DNA from: an uncultured Planctomycetota bacterium
Lineage (GTDB): Bacteria; Planctomycetota; JACQVV01; CAZANL01
DNA length: 33,232 nt
Assembly (NCBI GenBank): GCA_964566865.1
Contig: CAZMLI010000002.1
Span: forward strand, 1 to 33,232
Direction of reading: 5' to 3'
Of the stretch, positions 1,117 through 10,448 are shown in pieces (within the stretch, counting starts at the first letter, position 1; the number at the start of each line of letters is the position of its first letter). The notes under the pieces were generated by a model. It saw only the letters and a program-made list of their open reading frames with translations, was not told the origin of the DNA and searched no databases. The position numbers were made by a program, and so were the translations under genes.

Positions 1117-2391
1117 GTGAAGCCCTGGCAGTTAGCCATCTCGGCAGCTGCCCTTGTCCTGCTGGTAATCACGACAGCCTCTACCCGTGGCCGCGATGAG
1201 GCGCAAAGCCCAATTGCGCCCCCCGGCATTCTCCTTGAGCATCAGGACAAGAACAGTTCTGCCGAGAGAAGGCGGCCGGCGACGGAGAAGGCCCCCTCTC
1301 GTCCCGCGAGGGTACGAGCCAAGAGCGCCAGAAAACGCGCCCAAGAGCAAAGCCGACGGTTCTTGGCTGAGCTGGAGAGAATGGTCAGCTCCTCCAAGCA
1401 TCGCACTGCCGGGAGCCTGCACCAGCGGGTTCGACAACTTGCCCTCAAGGACAAGTGTGTGGTCGAGAAGTTGATTCGGCTGTATCGAAGCCTCACCGAT
1501 CCGGCCCTGAAAGGGCAGCTGATCCTCATGCTGGGCGGGCTTCCTTACCCCGAGGTGCTGCAGCTAGTCATCGCGGAATTCACCAAACAAGGTGGTGACC
1601 TTTACGTGAGGCAGCTCGCCCTTTCCGTGGTTATAAGCCACGAGAAGAGGTGGATGACCAAGGAGCAAGATCGACGGCTCCTGTCGGAGCTAGCCAACAT
1701 CATCCGTAATGACGCAGAGCCTGGTGGCCTCAGGAATCTCGCTCTGTCGAAGCTTCAGTTTGTTGGACACCCGGAGCTGAACGAGATTCGGGATCTGATT
1801 GGGATCACACTCTCCGGTTCGGATCACGAGTTAATAACGACCGCATACTGGGTTGCGAACCTGCTCTCGCTTGACGACGAGCAGTTCCTTTCCGCGGCCA
1901 CCAAGCTCCTGAGAGAGACCCCCGGGGCAGACCTGACGCGTGTCCTCGTTGCGTATCTATCCTCCAACGGAGGGCCAGCAGTGCAGCAGGCGATGTTGAT
2001 AGAGCTCAGCGCGAACAGCAGCTCAATATACCGGGCGTTTGTAGCAGAGAATCTCAGCGCCAAGACAGGCGACAGAGCCGTAAGAATGAAGCTCATCCAT
2101 GCGCTGTTCAATGATCCAGATCCGGACGTTCAACTCGTCGTTATCGAGTCTTTACGATTCGGGGTGTACAACGACTCAGCTACCGTGGAAGCGCTGAAGA
2201 AGAAGGTCCAGGACCACACAGCGAAGGCAGATGTCCGCCTTTCTGCCGCAAGTGCGGCACTGTATCGCAGCCGGGTCGAGTTGGTTGATTCAACGAAAGC
2301 AGTTCTCTCCTTTCTGAGAACCGTCTCCGAGTCCGAACAGGATGCAGCTGTCCGGAAGGGACTTCAGGCACTAGGAGGACATACTCGATGA
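1117..2391 (+). CDS. exported or membrane-anchored HEAT-repeat protein
   Basis: ORF 1027..2391. Likely GTG start at 1117 precedes hydrophobic LAISAAALVLLVITTA. Repeated HEAT-like motifs (DPALKGQLILMLG, DPDPDVQLVVIESL, QDAAVRKGLQAL). Stop overlaps the next ATG (ATGA). Confidence 0.65.
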   Translation: MKPWQLAISAAALVLLVITTASTRGRDEAQSPIAPPGILLEHQDKNSSAERRRPATEKAPSRPARVRAKSARKRAQEQSRRFLAELERMVSSSKHRTAGSLHQRVRQLALKDKCVVEKLIRLYRSLTDPALKGQLILMLGGLPYPEVLQLVIAEFTKQGGDLYVRQLALSVVISHEKRWMTKEQDRRLLSELANIIRNDAEPGGLRNLALSKLQFVGHPELNEIRDLIGITLSGSDHELITTAYWVANLLSLDDEQFLSAATKLLRETPGADLTRVLVAYLSSNGGPAVQQAMLIELSANSSSIYRAFVAENLSAKTGDRAVRMKLIHALFNDPDPDVQLVVIESLRFGVYNDSATVEALKKKVQDHTAKADVRLSAASAALYRSRVELVDSTKAVLSFLRTVSESEQDAAVRKGLQALGGHTR

Positions 2392-3927
2392 AGTTGTTTC
2401 TCGTCATTGCACTGCTGCTCCCGCTAGCTCTCGAGGCTAACGCCCAGAAACCAGAGTGGGTAAAGACGAATACTCTGGTCTATGGGCGCGGGGATGACTC
2501 GCTCAGCCTCGACCCTGCGTATGTCGACGACGGCGAATCCGTCAAGGTGATCGAGACCATCTACGAAACCCTGCTACGCGTCGGCGCCGGCGGACGGCTC
2601 GAGCCCTGGCTAGCGACGCGCTGGTCCGTGCTGGACGGGTTCCACGGTTACGTCTTCACCATTCGCAAGAACGTCTGGTTTCATGACGGGACGCCGATGA
2701 CCCCCGCCGCGGTTGCTGCGAGCCTCAATCGTCTGCTTGCCAGTCGCAGTCCCTACCTCACCTTCTACCAGACCATCAAGAGGGTCTCGGCCGCGGGGCA
2801 ACAGGTGCGTGTCGAGACCAGCAAGCCCGATGCCACACTACCGTACAATCTGGCAATGTTCCCGGCTTCGATCGTCAGTTCGGCCGCGGTCAAGAGGCAC
2901 GGCAGACTGTTCGGCCCCCAGGTCGCGGTCGGAACCGGCCCGTTCAAGCTGACCCGTTGGCAGAAGGACGTGGTCGTCGAGGTCGCACGGTTCAAGGGTT
3001 ACTGGGGCAAGAAGGCGCGCGTCACGCGCATCGAGTTCCGCAAGGTCCGGGACGACCGCAAGCGCCTGGCGCTGCTGCGCAGTGGGCACCTGTCCTATAT
3101 GGACGGGCTGAACCCACGGGACATCAAAGGCGTGATGTCCGACCCCAAGCTGGTACTCAAGATGAGCGAGCGCGGCCACGAAACCAGCCTGCTTTACCTG
3201 GCGTTCAACACCCAGAGCCCCCCCCTTCGACAACGTCAAGTTCCGCCAGGCGGTGGCCCATGCGCTGGACAAGAAGGCGATCGCCGGACTGTACAACGGC
3301 TGGGCCAGTCCGCTCGACCTCCCGGTCCCACCAGGCATCAATGGGTACTCGAAAACCGCGCGAGGCCTGACGCATGACCTGGCGAAGGCGAAGCGACTGC
3401 TGGCGGAGTCGGGCGTCAAGCTGCGCAAGCTGACGCTGGTGCACATGAACAATCCTCGCCCGTACATTCACTACCCACAGGCTGTCGCCAGGTCAGTCGC
3501 GGCCAGCCTGGCGAAGATCGGCATCACCGTGACAGTGACAGGGATGCCATGGGCACGCTACTTGGCCTACGTTCAGCATGGCAAGCACCAGCTGTGTCTT
3601 CTCGGCTGGTCGACCGACAACGCAGACGCCGACAACTTCCTCTCGACACTCTTCCACTCCAGCAATACGCAGAAGGGCCGAGCATCCAACATCTCGTTCT
3701 TCAAGGACGACAAGCTGGACCGCCTGCTCCTCCAGCAACGTCGAGAGGTCGATCCCACCAAGCGCGCCCCGCTGCTCGACCAGGTCTACCGATACGTCGT
3801 CGCCCACTCACCGATCGTGCCCCTGATCGCGGCGCGCCAGGGAATCGTACACCACGCCCTGCTGTCAGGAGCCACGCTCGGGCCGACCTACCAGCGTAGT
3901 CTCTGGCGAGTCAAGATACGCAAGTGA
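2388..3927 (+). pseudogene. ABC transporter peptide/nickel-binding protein (SBP family 5, DppA/OppA-like), split by a +1 frameshift
   Basis: Signal peptide MKLFLVIALLLPLALEANA. Family motifs SLDPA, IYETLL, PWLATRW, FHDGTPMT, GTGPFKL, YWG. Removing one C from the C8 run at 3218-3225 joins ORF 2388..3377 to ORF 3253..3927 and restores FNTQSPPFDNVKFRQAVAHALDK. Could be an intact gene with a sequencing error. Confidence 0.85.
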
Positions 3928-3938
3928 AGCGAACTGGC

Positions 3939-3956
3939 GCTAGTGGGGTGAGTCAG
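3939..3956 (+). repeat. left terminal inverted repeat plus target sequence
   Basis: GCTAGTGGGGTGAGTCAG is the exact 18-nt reverse complement of 5601-5618. Confidence 0.9.
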
Positions 3957-3994
3957 TCATTCGATGAACTGCCCCAGCAGGCTGTGGGTCTGCC

Positions 3995-4552
3995 TCAGAG
4001 CTGGGCCACTGCCTCTTCGATCCCCGCGATCATCTCGGAGAGCCGCAACAACTCGCCCTCGATGCCGACCTCGGCCGCCTGCTCCCCGGACGCCCCGGCG
4101 ATCGCATGACCCACCAGCTTGGACCCCGCGATCGCGGTGACGGACCTCATCTGCTCCGCATCCGCCTCGGCCATGCGCTGCAGCCGCTGGTTCTTGCTGA
4201 GTCGCCCCGCAATCGTCTCGGCCAGCCTGGCCGCGCCGCTGGCATCCGCGTCGACACCGATATCCGCGAGTATCTCGCTCAGCTCCTCCAGGCACTTGGC
4301 GTCCTGCATTGCGTCGGCAGCCATACGGTACTCCAGCTTGAGCAAGCCCAGCAGATACAGCGCTGCCTCGGCGGATCGACCCTCCTGGTGCAGGGAACGC
4401 GCGCGGTCGAGCCGCTGGCGTCCTGCCTCGTGCCGCTTGCGGCGCCCTTCTCGCTTGCGCTGCTTTGCCCGGTCACCCCTTATCCGCAGCACAGCAACGA
4501 TCACCACCAGGATCACCGTGAAGATGATGAAGTTCTGGGCATCCGAGTCCAT
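3995..4552 (-). CDS. hypothetical single-pass membrane protein with a helical domain
   Basis: Start ATG 4552 follows a strong SD (GGGGAGG). N-terminal TM FIIFTVILVVIVAVL, then a basic stretch and amphipathic helices. No family recognised. Confidence 0.65.
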   Translation of the reverse strand: MDSDAQNFIIFTVILVVIVAVLRIRGDRAKQRKREGRRKRHEAGRQRLDRARSLHQEGRSAEAALYLLGLLKLEYRMAADAMQDAKCLEELSEILADIGVDADASGAARLAETIAGRLSKNQRLQRMAEADAEQMRSVTAIAGSKLVGHAIAGASGEQAAEVGIEGELLRLSEMIAGIEEAVAQL

Positions 4553-4702
4553 GCAATCAACCTCCCCGACCATGATCTCATCCGACAGCAGTGCGCACAT
4601 TCTCTACTATTGCCCGACGCTGTGCCACACTGGACTGCCACTCGGTTGACCCACGCATCTCGGAGTGGACACCGCAGCAGCCAACCGCTAGCGTAGCGCA
4701 GC

Positions 4703-5203
4703 ATGAATGCAGAAGACTTGACTGACGGCCTCACCGGATGCCATTCGAGGCAGGCGCTGATACTAGATCTGCACCAGGCCGTGACGGAAGCCGACAGAAT
4801 GAGCAGGCGCTACAGAGCCACCTTCCTCTGCGTCGACCTGGACAACCTGCAGCGCTACCTGGACCAGCACGGCCATGCGCCGACAGACATTCTGCTTCAG
4901 CGCCTGGCTGATCGTCTCTGCATCCTCTACCCGAACTCTCGGGTCTATCGATTCGGCGGCGACGAGTTCGTGGTCGAGAAAGTGGATCAGCCTGACCTGG
5001 ACCTCAACAGCCACTTCGAGGTCCCGGTGAAACAGGCGCTCGTCGATATCGATGTGGGCTTGCAGGGCAAACGAATCAACCGCACCGCCAGCTGGATCAT
5101 GCTGCACATCCACGAGGGTGTTGTGAAGTCATCAGTCCAACCGATACGCATAGAGTGTCGAGATCGACCTGCCGCGGATAGGAAGTATATGGGCTCAACA
5201 TAG
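4703..5203 (+). CDS. stand-alone degenerate GGDEF (diguanylate cyclase-like) domain protein
   Basis: DGLTG..SR, VDLDNLQRYLDQHGH..TD, VYRFGGDEF. The canonical FKxxND and GD positions are altered, the C-terminal part is divergent, and there is no sensor domain. Confidence 0.8.
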   Translation: MNAEDLTDGLTGCHSRQALILDLHQAVTEADRMSRRYRATFLCVDLDNLQRYLDQHGHAPTDILLQRLADRLCILYPNSRVYRFGGDEFVVEKVDQPDLDLNSHFEVPVKQALVDIDVGLQGKRINRTASWIMLHIHEGVVKSSVQPIRIECRDRPAADRKYMGST

Positions 5204-5462
5204 GCTACATTATCGGCGAGACAGAATTGATGTGCCACTGATCGGAGCACTTTCCTCTCAGTTAGCACAACTCTCGGTCTCTCCCTCCACGAGGCGATAC
5301 AGCAGCGTCACTCGAAGCCTCCGTTGCCCAGCACTCTTTCTATCTCACTGCGATGACGCGGATCGCAGGCTGCCCAGCGCCGCTCATCCTGGTCAAGGTC
5401 CGCAAGGAAGCCGAAACGAGATCGCACGCGCTTGCCAGCCGCGCAGATCGAGGTATGGGTCG

Positions 5463-5490
5463 CTTCGTCGTGACTCTTCGTCGTGACTCT
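5463..5490 (+). repeat. 13-bp tandem duplication
   Basis: CTTCGTCGTGACT at 5463-5475 and 5476-5488, plus CT. Confidence 0.85.
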
Positions 5491-5499
5491 CCGGCCGCC

Positions 5500-5562
5500 C
5501 GGCGTTGCGGCTGCGTTACTCCTCCTCGACGACCTCCCGGGTCGCCTCGTCGTCGCGCCTTG
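5500..5562. repeat. structured REP/MITE-like segment near the right TIR
   Basis: CGACC/GGTCG stem (5530-5544) and alternative CGACGAC/GTCGTCG stem (5527-5555) within GCGTTACTCCTCCTCGACG...CGTCGTCGCGCCTTG. Resembles intergenic repeat families from memory only. Confidence 0.4.
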
Positions 5563-5600
5563 TCATGCACCAGAATCACCTCGCATTATTCGACGTATTC

Positions 5601-5618
5601 CTGACTCACCCCACTAGC
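5601..5618 (-). repeat. right terminal inverted repeat plus target sequence
   Basis: CTGACTCACCCCACTAGC is the exact reverse complement of 3939-3956. Confidence 0.9.
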
Positions 5619-5627
5619 CACAGGCTG

Positions 5628-6848
5628 CTAGCGCCGTCGGCGACGTCTGGGTTTTCTTGAGCGAGACCTTGAGCTGCGTGCTTCCTCAAACGGCTCATCG
5701 TCGAGCAAGGGCTCGAGCGTCTTCACCGCCTCACCCGTATCCCCGAAGCGCTTTGCAGCCAGCAAGAGCCAGATTCCTACGAGCAGCTGGCTCAGTGAGC
5801 CAGCGATCAACCCTATCCAGATGAGCCTTGAAAAGAAACGACCCGCACCAGCTGGTCCGGTCTTGAGCACTACCGTTTCGACATGTGTCTTTTTCACCTC
5901 ATCGAACATGTGCTCCTGGGTCATAGAGGGCTGTGTGACCGTCAGAGTGAGCCGGACCCGCAACTCGCTGTCGGCGAGTGGCGAGTCCGAGGGCAAGCGC
6001 AGCCGCACCCAAGGAGTGATCTCCTCATAACCATCGCCTCCCTTTCGGGCCGAGAACGAGTCTGGCCAACCCTCCGTTCTGGTTTCCGAGGGAATAACCG
6101 TGCCTGTGGGCTGCTTCCCATCGAGGAGCTCTGCGGTGCACTCCCCGCGCCAATATCCGCTGAGCGCATGAAACCGTGTTTCAAGGTAGCAGGTTGAAAC
6201 GTCCCCTGGTCCCAACACGCCTGGATAGAGGTTGGAGTTGGTTGGCCAGCCCTTTGCCAGCCGCAACGGAACTGGAAGAACGAGCAAAGCGATGCAGCCC
6301 CCGAGCAGCCCGATCGTCCACGACGTGTTGACGGGTCCAGGCAGAGATCCCGCTGGATTATCCGGATCCCCCTCCTCAATTATCGCCAGACGCCCCTTTT
6401 CTAACCCATTCGTGGCCCTCTCCAGGTTGTCGTCCAGGTCTTTGTTAGCATCGATGTAGAGCCCAGAGAAGTGAAGCCAACCCGCGAGGCCGACGGCAAT
6501 GGCCGACAATACGGCCGCAGTCGCCCCGTGAAGATAGTGACCGTAGTGCAGCAGCAAGGGGAGCAGGGACCCGATGGAGCCAACTACTAGCCCCAATAGA
6601 TGCTCGGGCACAAGCTGGCTAGCTATCATCTCCGGCTGGATCGTACCGCAACAGGGGCATGGATGGCTCTCGATCTGTGTTAGAGCCTGCCGTGCGCGGT
6701 CTTCCAGTGCGGATCTCGCAGCGTCGAGCTGCTTTCCAGTCGCCGACAACTCTCGCCCGAAATGATAGCTGTACAGGGCACCGCAGTGGCCACAGCCGTG
6801 CTGTTTCCATGCTGTTACCGTTCCAGAAACTTCTCTCCTCGAAGACAT
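5628..6848 (-). CDS. hypothetical membrane protein with an N-terminal split zinc ribbon
   Basis: CGHCG...CPCCG cysteine pairs, about four hydrophobic segments, a beta-rich soluble domain and an Arg-rich C-terminal tail. Confidence 0.75.
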   Translation of the reverse strand: MSSRREVSGTVTAWKQHGCGHCGALYSYHFGRELSATGKQLDAARSALEDRARQALTQIESHPCPCCGTIQPEMIASQLVPEHLLGLVVGSIGSLLPLLLHYGHYLHGATAAVLSAIAVGLAGWLHFSGLYIDANKDLDDNLERATNGLEKGRLAIIEEGDPDNPAGSLPGPVNTSWTIGLLGGCIALLVLPVPLRLAKGWPTNSNLYPGVLGPGDVSTCYLETRFHALSGYWRGECTAELLDGKQPTGTVIPSETRTEGWPDSFSARKGGDGYEEITPWVRLRLPSDSPLADSELRVRLTLTVTQPSMTQEHMFDEVKKTHVETVVLKTGPAGAGRFFSRLIWIGLIAGSLSQLLVGIWLLLAAKRFGDTGEAVKTLEPLLDDEPFEEARSSRSRSRKPRRRRRR

Positions 6849-7109: not shown

Positions 7110-10100
7110 CTAACCGCCGGCTTCGACCTTGCGGATCTTCCGCGCGATCGATGCCTGGCGATCGGCCGGTGCGTACTTCTGCGCCTTGCGTAACGCGGCC
7201 AGCGTCTCGGGTCGTTTACGCTGTCGTTCGCGGACCAGCCCCAGATTGAACCAGGCGTACCAGGCCCGTTCATTGAGCGCGACCGCACGCTCCAGATCCC
7301 GCAGCGCGCCGGCCAGGTCGCCGGCGCGCAGGTGCACGCTGCCTCGATTGGCGTAGCCCATGTCCCATTTCGGTCGCAGCTTGATCACCTGCTCGAAGTC
7401 GAGAATCGCTTGCTTCGCCCGGCCCTGCGCGGCATGCATCTGGCCACGATTCAGATAGGCCTTTGCGTGCCGCGGATCGAGCTCGATCGCGCGCGTATAG
7501 TCCCGCATCGCCGCTGCGAACTTCTTCAGTCGGACCAGCACGTAGCCCCGTGAGAAGTAGCTGCCACCCTTCTTCGGCGCGAGCTTGATCGCCTCGTCAT
7601 AGTCGACGACCGCGCCAGGCAAGTCTCCCAGCCGACGACGGATCACGCCGCGGTTGTGATAGGCGACCGAGGCGCGAGGATCGAGCTGAATCGCCCGGGT
7701 GAAGTCATCCATCGCCTGCTTCAGCGCACCCCGGCGCATCTGCGTGATGCCTCGCGCGGTCCGATAGTCCGCATTCCGGGGATCCAGCTCGATCGCCCGA
7801 TCGTTATCACCGAGCGCTTCGTCGTGGCGTTCGAGCCGCTGGAGGACCTGAGCGCGGTTGATGTATCCCGTGGCCTGTTGCGGGCGGAGTTTGATGCTCC
7901 TGCTGAAATCGGCCAGCGCAGCTTCGAGCCGCCCCAGCGCCTGGAAGGCCAGTCCGCGGTTGTTGAAGGCGGAAACCAGCCGCGAGTCCTGGCGGATCGC
8001 CTGGTCGAAGTCGCGGATCGCCCGTTCTATCCGCTTTTGCTGGTAGAGCGCCAGTCCGCGATTGTTCCAGACCGTGGCCGAGCGCGGATTCAGCTTCAAC
8101 GCACGCGTCAGATAGCGCAGCGCCTGCTCGGTCCGTTTCAGATTCAGATTGGCCACGCCACACATGTTGAGCAGGTCGAAGCGATCCGGCTCCCGCCGCG
8201 CGGCCTCCTCGAAATCGTCGGCGGCGCCCCGCCAGTCTCCCTTGTCCATCCGCGAAAGACCCCGCCGATAGAGTGAACTCACGGTTTGCACGCCCGCCTT
8301 GGCGTGGGGCTCGGGCACACGCCCGAACGCGACAGCGATCTGCCGCCAGGCGGTCGAGTCGGCGCCCAGCCGGTTGCGCGCCTCGACCAGCGCGCCGTGG
8401 GCCAGGGCGCTGCGGGTATTGCACAGCGCCAGACCGGCCTCGACTGCCAGCTCCCGGTCCCAGACCAGCGCCATCCAGTCCAGCAGCGGATGCACCGCCT
8501 CGCGCAGCCGCAGACGCCCCAGCACGCGCGAGATGAAGATCGCCTGGTCCCGCTCCCACTGTTGCCAGGAGGTCGCCCGGCCGCCTCGGCGGGCCTTGCC
8601 CTGCAGCGACTGCAACGCCTGCGCCAGGATGCCGATCGTCTGCGCCTCCCGATAGCCGACCGCCTCGAAGACAAAGTCCCGCAGGGTTGGCGCCGCCGGA
8701 TCCCGACCGGGTCGGGACAGGCCGGCCTTCAACTCCGCCAGGATCTGGCGCAGCCTGCTCGCCTGTTGCTGCGCCCGCCGGTCGCGAGTGCCATGCAGCG
8801 AGGCAATCAATACGCCAATATCCTCATCCGGCGCCCCAAACGCCTTCAGATCGCGAAAGGCTCGCTCGGCCAGCATGTAATCGGCGCCGAGAATCGCCAC
8901 CTGCCCCAGCCGCTCTCCGGCCTGCCGCCGCAAGGCGCGCGCCTCCCGGTGGCCGGGCGCCAGCGCCAGCACGCGATCGAGCATACTGCAGGCCGCCAGG
9001 TAGTCGCCCAGGGCGGACTCCCGCTTGTAGCGTTGTGCGGGCGTCTCGGGCCGCTGGCCCCCGTCCGGCAGGCTGCGTAGCTTCGCCGGCTGACGCAGAG
9101 TCGAGATCGTCGACGCACGGGCAAGCAATTGCCTGGCCTGCGCCAGGCCCTGCTCGACCTGTGCTTGTCGGTCCTCGACCCGCGCCTGTTCGCGCGCCTG
9201 CTGCAGCGCGCTGGACTGCCAGTGCAGCCCGGCCAGCGTGCCTCCCACCAGCAGGACCATCGCCAGAGTGGCCAGGCTCGCCGCCTGGTTGCGCCCGATC
9301 CACTTGCGCAGCCGGTACATCCGCGACGGCGGCCGAGCCGCGATCGGTTCGCCCGCCTTCCAGCGGAGCAGCTCGTCGGCCAGCGCCTGGCCATCGCAGT
9401 AGCGCCGCTGGCGGTCCTTCTCCAGCGCCTTGAGACAGATCGTTTCCAGATCGCGGCCGATCGCGGGCGCCAGCCGGCGGGGAGGAACCGGATTGAAGTG
9501 CAGAATCTGCTCGTAGATCTCGGCCGCCGCCTGCCCGCGGAACGGCAAGGTGTCGGTCAGCATCATGTAGAGCATCACGCCCAGCGCCCAGACATCGGTG
9601 CGCGCATCGATCGCATGATCCATCGCCAGCACCTGCTCCGGCGCCATGTAGGAGTCGGTGCCGAGCACGGTTCCGCTGCGGGTCAACTGCTGGCTGCCCT
9701 CACCACGCGCCAGGCCGAAGTCGGTCACGATCGGCCGCCCGTCCCGCGTGAGCAGGATGTTGGAGGGCTTGATGTCGCGGTGGATCACGCCGGCCTGATG
9801 CGCATGCCCCACCGCCTGCGCCACCGGCTCGAGCACATCGATCCGTTCCGCCAGCGTCATCAGCGGAAGCTGATGCCCCAGCGTCTCGCCGTCGATGAAG
9901 TCCATCGCGATGAAATGCACCGTTGCCTGGGTCAGCTCGTCCTGCGCCACGCCGACCTCGTGCACGGTGATGATGTTCGGATGTGAAAGCCGCGCGGCCA
10001 GCATCGCCTCCCGCCGCAGCCGCTCGATCATCTCCTCGCCACCATCCAGATCGCGCAGCACCTTGAGCGCCACGACCCGCTCCAGATCGGGGTCGAGGGC

Positions 10101-10448
10101 TTGATACAAGACCCCCATGCCGCCCTGGGCGAACTCGGACAGCACCTGGTACTTGCCCAGCTGGGACAGCGGCCGCCGGCCGAAGTAGCGCTTGATCGGT
10201 AGCTGGCCCTGCTGCTGCGTGCTGCCATCGCCGCCGGCGGCGAACTTCACCGGACGCTGCACCTCGACCGCCAGCAGCTGCAGCGAGATCAGGATCTCCA
10301 GCTGCAGCCCCAGCGCCTGCGCGACCGTCTCCAGCTCCCGCGAGATCTGGCCTGCCGCCAGCGCCTCGCCGACCACCCGGCAACTCTCGGGAGAAACCAG
10401 ACGCATGTCTCTGGCCAGCTCGATCGCGCCGATCAGCTCGTCAGTCAT
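7110..10448 (-). CDS. membrane Hanks-type Ser/Thr protein kinase with a C-terminal TPR array
   Basis: AQGGMG, VALK, HRDIKPSN, DFG, YMAPE, DVWALG. TM AASLATLAMVLLVGGTLAGL. HEAT-like middle region. About 11 consecutive 34-aa TPRs (e.g. ATVWNNRGLALYQQKRIERAIRDFDQAIRQDSRL). Confidence 0.95.
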   Translation of the reverse strand: MTDELIGAIELARDMRLVSPESCRVVGEALAAGQISRELETVAQALGLQLEILISLQLLAVEVQRPVKFAAGGDGSTQQQGQLPIKRYFGRRPLSQLGKYQVLSEFAQGGMGVLYQALDPDLERVVALKVLRDLDGGEEMIERLRREAMLAARLSHPNIITVHEVGVAQDELTQATVHFIAMDFIDGETLGHQLPLMTLAERIDVLEPVAQAVGHAHQAGVIHRDIKPSNILLTRDGRPIVTDFGLARGEGSQQLTRSGTVLGTDSYMAPEQVLAMDHAIDARTDVWALGVMLYMMLTDTLPFRGQAAAEIYEQILHFNPVPPRRLAPAIGRDLETICLKALEKDRQRRYCDGQALADELLRWKAGEPIAARPPSRMYRLRKWIGRNQAASLATLAMVLLVGGTLAGLHWQSSALQQAREQARVEDRQAQVEQGLAQARQLLARASTISTLRQPAKLRSLPDGGQRPETPAQRYKRESALGDYLAACSMLDRVLALAPGHREARALRRQAGERLGQVAILGADYMLAERAFRDLKAFGAPDEDIGVLIASLHGTRDRRAQQQASRLRQILAELKAGLSRPGRDPAAPTLRDFVFEAVGYREAQTIGILAQALQSLQGKARRGGRATSWQQWERDQAIFISRVLGRLRLREAVHPLLDWMALVWDRELAVEAGLALCNTRSALAHGALVEARNRLGADSTAWRQIAVAFGRVPEPHAKAGVQTVSSLYRRGLSRMDKGDWRGAADDFEEAARREPDRFDLLNMCGVANLNLKRTEQALRYLTRALKLNPRSATVWNNRGLALYQQKRIERAIRDFDQAIRQDSRLVSAFNNRGLAFQALGRLEAALADFSRSIKLRPQQATGYINRAQVLQRLERHDEALGDNDRAIELDPRNADYRTARGITQMRRGALKQAMDDFTRAIQLDPRASVAYHNRGVIRRRLGDLPGAVVDYDEAIKLAPKKGGSYFSRGYVLVRLKKFAAAMRDYTRAIELDPRHAKAYLNRGQMHAAQGRAKQAILDFEQVIKLRPKWDMGYANRGSVHLRAGDLAGALRDLERAVALNERAWYAWFNLGLVRERQRKRPETLAALRKAQKYAPADRQASIARKIRKVEAGG

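Follow-up and report, generated by a model that had tools for sequence, protein, structure and literature searches.

The 1.68-kb segment at positions 3939-5618 of a 33,232-nucleotide stretch of DNA from an uncultured Planctomycetota bacterium (hereafter the window) is bounded by perfect inverted ends of the IS630 family, and it is likely that these ends are a solo terminal inverted repeat (TIR) and a truncated MITE, which were inserted independently around resident genes. The original prediction had named two independent MITE-type insertions with resident intervening genes as the second of two scenarios that would speak against it, and this is the reading now favoured.

Reading of the sequence together with a repeat finder identified a 17-mer, CTAGTGGGGTGAGTCAG, in which CTAG leads into a 14-nt TIR. 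The 17-mer is located at 3940-3956 on the plus strand and recurs without a mismatch on the minus strand at 5601-5617, placing the two 14-nt TIRs at 3943-3956 and 5601-5614. Both junctions read CTAG, with the TA dinucleotides at 3941-3942 and 5615-5616. The perfect 14-bp TIRs with TA at both flanks that had been predicted were thus confirmed, and the predicted outward reading of '...DSPH' followed by TAG was seen in the ORF at 5483-5617. With ≤2 mismatches allowed, the window contains 2 matches to the 17-mer; its shuffled versions had 0.33 on average, and 1 of 100 reached 2. The recurrence of the 17-mer exceeds chance: in the whole genome, exact copies number 8 for the 17-mer and 0 for its reversed control, and with ≤2 mismatches allowed the numbers are 14 and 1. 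Each of the 8 exact copies has the form C-TA-[TIR]. Among public genomes (one genome per species, 185,579 species), the exact 17-mer was present in 19 stretches, 10 of which are from Planctomycetota.

Another genome of the phylum, G396, contains seven paired 1212-bp IS copies with ends near-identical to those of the window. The copy at L031:306-1517 has CTAG and a TIR differing by 1-2 nt, and the ends agree over ~30 of 36 nt when counted by hand. This IS has a single ORF (386-1504), whose stop codon lies within the right TIR and which encodes a 372-aa transposase matching the NCBIfam model NF033545 (IS630 family transposase) with 267.9 bits (cut-off 100) and Pfam DDE_3 with 71.8 bits. The window ends are genuine IS630-family ends, and both relics belong to one TIR family, the autonomous form of which is a 1.2-kb IS630-family IS. 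An IS630-type transposase on contig C544 was also considered as the cognate enzyme and was rejected, as it shares 26% identity with the G396 protein and its surroundings lack these ends.

The genome of the window also holds a complete, cargo-free 245-bp element, MITE-A, at C203:7956-8200, which has CTAG at either flank. Partial copies are found on C21, C178/C8 and C182 and at the right end of the window segment. Positions 1-36 of MITE-A match positions 245-210 by 89%, giving a family TIR of ~35 nt. MITE-A is short, non-coding, TIR-bounded and multi-copy with different flanks, as a MITE should be, and the 1.68-kb segment departs from this in size, coding content and copy number. The claim of IS630-like ends is therefore upheld by the recurrence of the 17-mer, by the 245-bp MITE in the same genome and by the IS630 transposase enclosed within near-identical ends in G396. 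The original prediction had suggested looking for a MITE that has these ends and no cargo, and for a transposase of the IS630 type enclosed by them; the former was found on C203 and the latter in the 1212-bp IS of G396, with no transposase inside the window segment. A second family, MITE-B, has a 14-nt end with 16 exact copies in the genome versus 0 for the reversed control, and most of these exact ends run on into a 248-bp MITE-B. The end of contig C266 was tried as a junction between the two families and was rejected, containing only a chance 'TGAGTCAG'.

The two ends of the segment are unequal. The left one (3940-3956, plus strand), identified by sequence reading and the genome-wide 17-mer search, is a bare 17-nt solo end of the MITE-A/IS630-type TIR. 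Only positions 1-17 of MITE-A are held in common, and in the 19 nt inward of the 17-mer 8 positions agree with the TIR by hand count. With a family TIR of ~35 nt, the inner TIR half is missing on the left, and the right end retains all ~35 nt, so that complete IS-type inverted repeats do not stand at both ends. The left half of MITE-A was not detected in 3957-4200, where 126 and 96 of 300 shuffles scored equally well. A lenient alignment hinted at a diverged left half of the MITE, either in 5257-5494 or inward of the left TIR, and this similarity proved to be chance under stricter scoring, since 50-199 of 300 dinucleotide shuffles scored equally well for 3957-4200 and 5257-5494. A second, interleaved pair of MITE-B ends was considered because of a B-like 14-mer at 3974-3987 (2 mismatches) and was likewise rejected as chance; at ≤2 mismatches the MITE-B 14-mer occurs 66 times in the genome versus 112 times for the reversed control, and the exact right-hand B end stands.

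On the left flank is an orphan, frameshifted SBP_bac_5 solute-binding gene (2388-3927, plus strand), in which the Pfam SBP_bac_5 match begins in one frame (2388-3377) and continues in another (3253-3927) and the stop codon lies 12 nt upstream of the left CTAG. Logan contigs of the sequencing runs X1 and X2 list no gap at the frame overlap (3253-3377). On C88, the ORF after an SBP paralogue points in the same direction and looks by eye like an ABC permease; no such ORF comes after the window copy.

The right end is the right half of MITE-A (positions 123-245) at 5495-5617 on the minus strand, including the TIR at 5601-5617, and is 99.2% identical over 123 nt to C203:8078-8200. It is part of an intergenic patchwork that runs from a truncated repeat R1 through unique DNA and the half MITE-A to an exact solo MITE-B end. 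R1 (5174-5256) is a truncated copy of an unrelated dispersed repeat, sharing 79.8-93% identity with copies on C10, C250 and C174, which extend past the break point in the window. The unique stretch (5257-5494) is non-coding and single-copy in the genome, with no Rfam match and no Pfam domain in its ORFs; over the wider range 3800-5800, no RNA family of Rfam was found at E values up to 1. A predicted 13-bp duplication was recovered by the repeat finder within this stretch as a tandem pair at 5463-5475 and 5476-5488. The hairpin segment that had also been predicted did not hold, as shuffled sequences fold about as well as 5257-5494 does or better (z = +1.36; 186 of 200 shuffles at least as good). 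The exact 14-nt solo end of MITE-B (5618-5631, minus strand) abuts the MITE-A end, and its CTAG contains the stop codon of the right-flanking gene, a 406-aa ORF (5628-6848, minus strand) that belongs to no family and has one paralogue, on C430, with 27% identity. An empty site had been reconstructed in a gap of about 26 bp between the convergent flanking genes. The gap of 26 nt between the two stop codons was correct, but 5618-5631 is a MITE-B end, so the right flank is not plain host DNA.

Between the ends are two unrelated genes and no transposase, as had been predicted and as the profile scan of the ORFs bore out; no transposase domain was found in any scanned ORF there. One gene encodes a 201-aa protein with a hydrophobic N-terminal stretch (3995-4600, minus strand) and has no Pfam or NCBIfam family. 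The other is a stand-alone GGDEF ORF of 166 aa (4703-5203, plus strand), matching Pfam GGDEF with 51.8 bits and TIGR00254 with 47.4 bits. Its residues 7-91 correspond to positions 3-86 of the 161-position Pfam profile. The recognisable part of the domain is thus its first half, reaching as far as the GGDEF motif; the missing half is absent from the other frames, leaving the domain incomplete. Most matches to GGDEF paralogues stop near residue 91, and 4 of 24, together with two tblastn alignments, extend to residues 107-131. The last codons of the ORF run into R1. The small GGDEF gene is probably degenerate.

No second copy of 3957-5494 was found in the genome except for the R1 fragment at 5164-5257. 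Across 185,579 species (one genome per species), no inverted pair of exact 17-mers carries cargo, the only pairs being of 72 bp and 167 bp; the paired copies with different cargo that the original prediction had suggested looking for were thus found neither in the genome nor in this collection. A clear homologue of the 201-aa protein was lacking in the three class relatives (G001-G003; the class comprises 4 genomes with that of the window) and in 400 other genomes of the phylum. Movement as a unit has left no sign in the form of a second genomic copy, an occurrence of the 201-aa ORF in these 403 genomes or an empty-site contig. A single gene-carrying transposon at 3940-5617 is accordingly not upheld: MITE body is confined to the right end, the left consists of the 17-mer alone, and neither a second copy, nor an empty site, nor another cargo-bearing pair was found in these searches.

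A foreign composition of the cargo was considered and not seen, the segment being ordinary for the genome. Its tetranucleotide distance is at the 72nd percentile and its GC content at the 15th; GC3 of the two cargo ORFs lies at the 41st and 68th percentiles, the latter being that of the 201-aa ORF (GC3 = 0.832) among the long ORFs of the genome. In G001, the genes next to the SBP homologue differ, as far as ORF layout alone shows, and G001 is not syntenic. The 406-aa protein, like the 201-aa protein, has no homologue in G001-G003, and a metagenome scan with it returned one weak match (34% identity over 68 residues). The collections contain no close relative with a syntenic locus, so that the residency of the two genes is presumed, a point against the favoured reading.

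In the genome of the window, this TIR family occurs most often as solo ends. Bare ends make up 8 of the 14 sites at ≤2 mismatches, namely the left end of the segment and sites on C216, C1, C23, C147, C317, C346 and C534. Six of the 7 solo ends outside the window have 1-2 mismatches, whereas both window 17-mers are perfect, which speaks against independent insertions. The solo end on C216 abuts a complete ruvA gene (RuvA_N, HHH_5 and RuvA_C to residue 201 of 202), the stop codon of which falls within the repeat; this ruvA is plainly not cargo. In genome G094, 23 of the 37 matches at ≤1 mismatch are unpaired, and 5 of the 6 unpaired ends inspected diverge directly after 17-26 nt. Mini elements of 38 bp, 55 bp, 72 bp and 79 bp also exist.

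Evidence from reads came from Logan contigs of four runs, of which X1 is the source sample, X4 belongs to a different study, and X2 and X3 have no coverage of the left end. The empty site, for which a search had been proposed, was not found, as no contig of the four runs joins 3939 to 5618; such contigs drop rare variants and cannot prove absence. A 351-nt contig of X4 covers 5505-5723 with one difference and runs 132 nt further left as MITE-centre-like sequence, known beyond the window match by a 30-nt consensus only. The 113 nt of MITE in the match and these 132 nt add up to 245 nt, the full length of MITE-A, joined to the flank of the 406-aa gene, suggesting that a full-length MITE once stood alone at the right site. 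A second X4 contig has the left TIR with a 6-nt skip (3944-3949) and 7 differences over 88 nt. In X1, a second path leads into 5628, skipping 5239-5627, and the contig covering 5197-5524 has a depth of 14.2 against ~21 on either side, indicating that variation affects the right end independently and does not fall at the TIR pair. Depth rises to 228 over R1, compared with ~21 around it, with loose ends at 5174/5176 and 5251-5257, and to 306 over the right MITE half, where loose ends at 5495/5496/5505 continue as MITE centre. The MITE half is thus at ~14 times single-copy depth in X1, so that unassembled copies are likely.

According to the explanation that we favour, the segment would be resident chromosome, consisting of the 201-aa ORFan and the small GGDEF gene, between two separate non-autonomous relics of the IS630 family. 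The left relic would be a solo 17-nt terminal repeat, and the right one the remainder of a MITE-A that was complete when it entered a CTAG and has since been shortened by ~120 nt on its left side. The two insertions would have been independent events, both in permissive gaps between convergent genes, where debris appears to gather in this genome. Decay may have proceeded from IS to MITE, then to mini-palindrome and finally to solo end. Since the left end has no inner TIR half, the unit is presumably not mobile now.

In principle, any two inverted ends could be mobilised together, which counts against independent insertions. We regard it as unlikely that the solo end and the half MITE, around resident or captured DNA, formed a unit like a mobile insertion cassette (MIC), moved in trans by an IS630-family transposase into the CTAG between the SBP and 406-aa genes. 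Such a unit would account for the perfect, inverted 17-nt termini with TA and CTAG at both junctions, but two separate insertions predict TA and CTAG at the outer junctions equally, so these do not discriminate. With 14 sites at random on 4.8 Mb, only ~0.016 convergent pairs within 1.7 kb are expected per genome; clustering in permissive intergenic gaps would raise this figure, and the co-occurrence of the ends is not fully explained. A source of transposase is also conceivable for the unit, as the cognate IS is present in the phylum and the genome of the window retains a 46-residue fragment of an enzyme of this type (C424:5-142, at the contig start; 57% identity to residues 133-178 of the G396-type transposase), but an intact cognate transposase is absent from the assembly (87% complete, 563 contigs). 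Furthermore, MITE copies probably went unassembled, and MITE-A and MITE-B have a common core between different TIRs, indicating that ends of this kind were re-paired with other DNA before. Against the unit, the segment is single-copy, no cargo-bearing pair occurs elsewhere in the genomes searched, the contigs of the four runs lack the empty site, and the left end comprises only the outer 17 of ~35 TIR nt. Moreover, the right flank is a solo end of another family, MITE-B, and the X4 contig points to a complete MITE standing by itself at the right site.

Slightly more doubtful is a nascent or active IS630-family MIC, in which the solo end and the half MITE re-paired around 1.5 kb of chromosome and shuttle the membrane ORFan and the GGDEF gene; identical end-swapping would then have made MITE-A and MITE-B. 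It is highly improbable that the contig was mis-joined across the multi-copy MITE half, so that the right TIR would not really lie next to the cargo. The X1 pieces 5197-5524 and 5589-5657 of the independent Logan assembly are indeed linked only via a 64-nt high-depth repeat contig (5526-5589, depth 107.5), but the first piece contains the junction of unique DNA and MITE at 5495, the second that of MITE end and flank, a single 2.8-kb contig (2400-5226) runs across the left junction, and a repeat of only 123 nt should by our reckoning be spanned by common paired-end reads. Equally far-fetched is a selected host motif, such as a 3'-end/stop-codon or protein-binding signal, copied or seeded by the IS family as solo 14-17-nt ends with a functional pairing: the inner boundary is nearly equal in two distant genomes (15-21 nt in that of the window, G000, and 17-26 nt in G094) and several ends supply stop codons at gene 3' ends (ruvA on C216, an ORF on C1, and the 406-aa gene via the MITE-B end), but an X4 contig skips 6 nt inside the left 17-mer, the mini elements provide the intermediates of a decay series, and no Rfam family matched.

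Together, our data suggest that the segment, read as two independent insertions around resident genes, is most likely genomic debris of the usual kind and that it probably does not represent a new gene shuttle. The case is a worked trap: for elements that target TA or CTAG, two relics mimic one element with a target duplication. As two separate relics can look like one element, a perfect TIR pair with TA flanks cannot prove that the DNA between is cargo. In addition, two related IS630-type MITE families not described before are recorded here, together with their decay series, from a marine lineage that has been sampled sparsely. If a cassette were nevertheless real, it would be, to our knowledge, the first IS630-family cassette with host genes in the phylum, and the IS630 debris of planctomycetes would function as a system that packages host DNA; judged by title and abstract opening, the papers found on mobile insertion cassettes together with IS630 do not deal with such a cassette. 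It would still fall within a known class, the MICs, and would not be a new kind of system.

Like the IS630 family (Tc1/mariner superfamily) and its MITE derivatives, the window segment displays TA duplication inside a CTAG target and terminal inverted repeats. Unlike them, it lacks a transposase, and its ends are half a MITE on the right and a bare 17-mer on the left. The ISsaga paper (PMC3129680) lists solo IRs and partial copies of ISs, together with MITEs and MICs, as IS-related objects. As described there, solo IRs are isolated repeats without partner or body, scars of past events, and the left end of the segment and 7 other sites resemble them; the scars here differ in being unusually uniform (~15-21 nt) and in that several give neighbouring genes their stop codons. 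MICs are described in two papers (PMC3129680, PMC4133298) as transposase-less, IR-bounded units with passenger genes that are mobilised in trans. The segment shares with them inverted IS-type ends, passenger ORFs, the absence of a transposase and TA at both junctions. It differs in being single-copy, in having an incomplete left end and a right end that comes from a full MITE seemingly inserted on its own, and in that no empty site was found in the contigs. PMC4133298 also describes TIME-COMP structures, composites of two Tn3-derived TIMEs that were captured experimentally while moving. These belong to the Tn3 family and not to IS630, and their movement was captured, whereas the window segment shows no sign of movement. 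As presented there, they are a precedent for two miniature non-autonomous elements bracketing and moving DNA, and bracketing of this type would appear to be the only route by which the window segment could become mobile.

The repeat finder placed CTAGTGGGGTGAGTCAG at positions 3940-3956 of the window sequence and its exact reverse complement at 5601-5617, and each end of the segment 3940-5617 is legible as an IS630-type C-TA-[14-nt TIR]. This layout is present on both sides as described in the original prediction, which had proposed one transposase-less, gene-carrying mini-transposon with IS630-like ends. Between the ends lie a 201-aa ORF (3995-4600, minus strand) that is hydrophobic towards its N-terminus and matches no Pfam or NCBIfam family, a 166-aa ORF (4703-5203, plus strand) whose GGDEF match covers only the front half of the domain (profile positions 3-86 of 161), a 13-bp tandem duplication (5463-5488, repeat finder) and ~420 nt without a convincing gene; a profile scan of the ORFs in 3940-5617 revealed no transposase domain. 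The segment is flanked on the left by a frameshifted SBP_bac_5 gene stopping at 3927 and on the right by a 406-aa ORF without a family, which lies on the opposite strand and stops at 5628. The SBP_bac_5 solute-binding gene (2388-3927) is split near 3253-3377, and its frameshift is uncorrected in the Logan contigs of two public sequencing runs (X1 and X2) over the site, where no gap is listed. Its paralogue on contig C88 has a co-directional ORF behind it, an ABC permease by eye; the window copy has no such ORF and is probably an orphan pseudogene. The minus-strand ORF at 7110-10448 (1112 aa) resembles a Ser/Thr kinase with a long repeat run, judged by eye only.

In the genome to which the window belongs as contig C2 (4.8 Mb, 563 contigs, 87% complete), the 17-mer occurred exactly eight times, compared to none for the reversed control, and at 14 sites with up to two mismatches, compared to one. 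A complete, cargo-free 245-bp element, MITE-A, was found at C203:7956-8200, with CTAG at both ends and imperfect TIRs of ~36 nt (89% identity between arms); partial copies lie on C21 (177 nt) and at the contig ends of C178/C8 and C182. When 401 genomes of the phylum were scanned, this one included, the motif was abundant in two others, G396 and G094. The single-contig genome G396 contains seven paired 1212-bp copies ending in CTAG and a TIR 1-2 nt different from that of the window, and each of the four examined in full has a single 372-aa ORF whose TGA stop falls within the right TIR. The encoded protein passed the NF033545 model, 'IS630 family transposase', at 267.9 bits (cut-off 100) and matched DDE_3 at 71.8 bits. 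G094 contains 150-170-bp MITEs with the same ends, plus many unpaired ends. With one genome per species (185,579 species), the exact 17-mer was found in 19 stretches, 10 of them in Planctomycetota MAGs, and the scattered singletons outside this phylum are fewer than random sequence predicts by our own arithmetic. The transposase model, the TA/CTAG target and the TIRs all place these ends in the IS630 family; their proposed identity was thus correct, and three of the checks suggested in the original prediction gave positive results, with further copies, cargo-free MITEs and an IS630 transposase bounded by matching ends all found. At a contig start in the window's genome (C424:5-142), a 46-residue transposase fragment is 57% identical to the G396 enzyme, and an intact-looking IS630-family gene without these ends (C544:1156-2195, 346 aa, DDE_3 91 bits) encodes a protein just 26% identical to it.

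A BLAST search of 3800-5800 against the same genome showed that 5495-5617 corresponds to MITE-A positions 123-245 at 99.2% identity, while the left end matches MITE-A over positions 1-17 and nothing further. As the family TIR is ~35 nt both in MITE-A and in the autonomous G396 IS (counted by hand in the latter), the 17-nt left end lacks the inner TIR half, which is the binding region of Tc1/mariner-type transposases. No MITE-A left half was detected above chance in 3957-4200 or 5257-5494, where 50-199 of 300 dinucleotide shuffles did as well; a diverged left half suggested by a lenient alignment was discarded after this stricter scoring.

Bare ends are the commonest state of the TIR family in the window's genome, 8 of the 14 sites (the left end in the window and those on C216, C1, C23, C147, C317, C346 and C534) having no MITE similarity past 15-21 nt. 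At up to one mismatch, 23 of 37 matches in G094 are unpaired. On C216, the sequence lying 'inside' the end is ruvA, shown by its Pfam domains to be complete (RuvA_N, HHH_5 and RuvA_C to residue 201 of 202) and with its TGA stop codon within the repeat at C216:7828-7844; nobody would call this gene cargo. A solo MITE end at C1:52428-52444 provides the TGA stop of the adjacent ORF, and the same extra CACTAG lies directly outward of the ends on C216, C147 and C21. Mini elements measure 38 bp (G396), 55 bp (C178/C8), 72 bp (L060, a retrieved stretch) and, in a second family, MITE-B, 79 bp (C45), and these sizes suggest a decay path from IS through MITE and mini-palindrome to solo end. By hand count, the 38-bp element (L029, G396:C1:119729-119765) consists solely of a facing pair of TIRs separated by 4 nt, and is the smallest family member seen.

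The right flank does not consist of host DNA alone, since 5618-5631 is an exact copy of the MITE-B terminal 14-mer directly adjoining the MITE-A end. MITE-B (248 bp, TIR CTAGCAGCCTGTGGATAAAGTGC) was found by aligning relatives of the MITE core; it has a centre homologous to that of MITE-A and different ends, and its terminal 14-mer has 16 exact copies in the genome, compared to none for the control. In the window, this end supplies the TAG stop of the 406-aa gene at 5628-5631. MITE-B sites also lie at C85:11094-11341 and on C286, C62 and C16, with the 79-bp form at C45:16177-16255. The common core matches repeats in two other genomes, G005 and G027, in which no MITE-A end was found. A third dispersed repeat, R1, is present at 5174-5256 as a truncated copy, and other copies (C10:17865-17962, C250:4926-4984, C174:529-581 and 7538-7567; 79.8-93% identical) run on past the window's break. 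The window copy extends over the final codons of the GGDEF ORF. R1 has ~10x single-copy depth in run X1 and matched no Rfam family. Across 5204-5631 the order is R1 fragment, unique DNA, half MITE-A and solo MITE-B end, a patchwork that independent insertions and deletions, recurring within a permissive gap, would leave behind.

Parts of the stretch are present in six public runs from two studies, four of which (X1-X4) were analysed, all as Logan contigs. In X1, probably the source sample, one unbroken contig covers 2400-5226, a second crosses from unique DNA into the MITE at 5495 and a third from the MITE end into the flank; depth reaches 228 on R1 and 306 on the MITE half, compared to ~21. 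An alternative X1 path runs from 5238 to 5628 through a single added letter, omitting 5239-5627 (389 nt, among them the half MITE-A and the greater part of the MITE-B end), and the contig over 5197-5524 has a depth of 14.2, roughly two thirds of that of its neighbours. This path and depth indicate that the right end is structurally variable, though not at the TIR pair, and the path may represent a co-existing deletion variant. In X4, which is from a different study, a 351-nt contig spans 5505-5723 with one difference and then extends 132 nt further leftward, reading like the MITE-A centre as judged from a 30-nt consensus only. As 113 + 132 = 245 nt, the full MITE-A length, the X4 population appears from these contigs and this consensus to have an ordinary complete MITE-A at the right site, joined to the same 406-aa flank. 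Over 3950-4037, another contig of X4 shows 7 differences and 3 gaps, and it skips 6 nt within the left 17-mer. No contig joining 3939 to 5618, the empty site, was found in X1-X4, where contigs cannot show absence and those of X2 and X3 miss the left end.

Apart from the R1 fragment (5164-5257), 3957-5494 is single copy in its genome. Three class relatives and 400 other phylum genomes contain no clear homologue of the 201-aa protein (best foreign match, E = 2e-4). Among the 185,579 species, no cargo-bearing pair of exact 17-mers was found in other genomes, close inverted pairs being just 72 bp and 167 bp apart, and G094 has no cargo-sized pair, all seven close pairs being ≤ ~170 bp. The composition of the segment is ordinary for its genome: among 2,584 genome windows it ranks at the 72nd percentile for tetranucleotide distance and at the 15th for GC, and among long ORFs its two genes rank at the 68th (201-aa ORF) and 41st (GGDEF ORF) for GC3. 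With a MITE body at the right end alone, a bare left end and no sign of movement, a single gene-carrying transposon at 3940-5617 is unsupported; what stands of the original prediction is that the ends are real and IS630-type. The segment is likely best labelled a solo IR and a truncated MITE, independent relics flanking resident genes. Because no relative with a syntenic locus was found in the genome collections searched, we infer rather than demonstrate the residency of the two genes.

Alternatively, 3940-5617 could be a mobilisable unit like a mobile insertion cassette, a transposase-less element with passenger genes, which we consider unlikely given its incomplete inverted repeats, the left end lacking the inner TIR half, and no evidence of movement. 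Random placement of 14 sites in 4.8 Mb would put only ~0.016 pairs in convergent orientation within 1.7 kb of each other (91 pairs × 7e-4 × 1/4, our own arithmetic from the 14-site count), although insertions are clearly non-random, as most ends examined in the genome sit at gene ends or between genes. Both window 17-mers are perfect, while six of the seven other solo ends carry 1-2 mismatches. The outer TA and CTAG are compatible with a single insertion and equally with two, since each family insertion leaves C-TA on the left and TA-G on the right. The core common to MITE-A and MITE-B sits between unlike ends, so such ends get re-paired with other DNA, and a passage of PMC4133298 relates that two miniature non-autonomous elements of the Tn3 family were shown experimentally to move intervening DNA. 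Moreover, the 46-residue fragment of a cognate transposase on C424 and the ~14-fold MITE-half depth suggest that unassembled copies are present, so an intact transposase in the organism is possible. Even less credible than this unit are an assembly mis-join and solo ends acting as a functional host motif.

The segment is of an already known kind, and its main value lies in the warning that it gives for the interpretation of TIR pairs flanked by TA and in a first description of two MITE families from a little-sampled lineage. The segment has the same layout as a mobile insertion cassette, but two defining features of such cassettes, complete IRs at both ends and evidence of movement, fail in it. 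Its left end finds a counterpart in solo IRs, a recognised class of IS-related object according to an excerpt of PMC3129680, and with MITE-A and MITE-B the known class of IS630-derived MITEs gains two new members.
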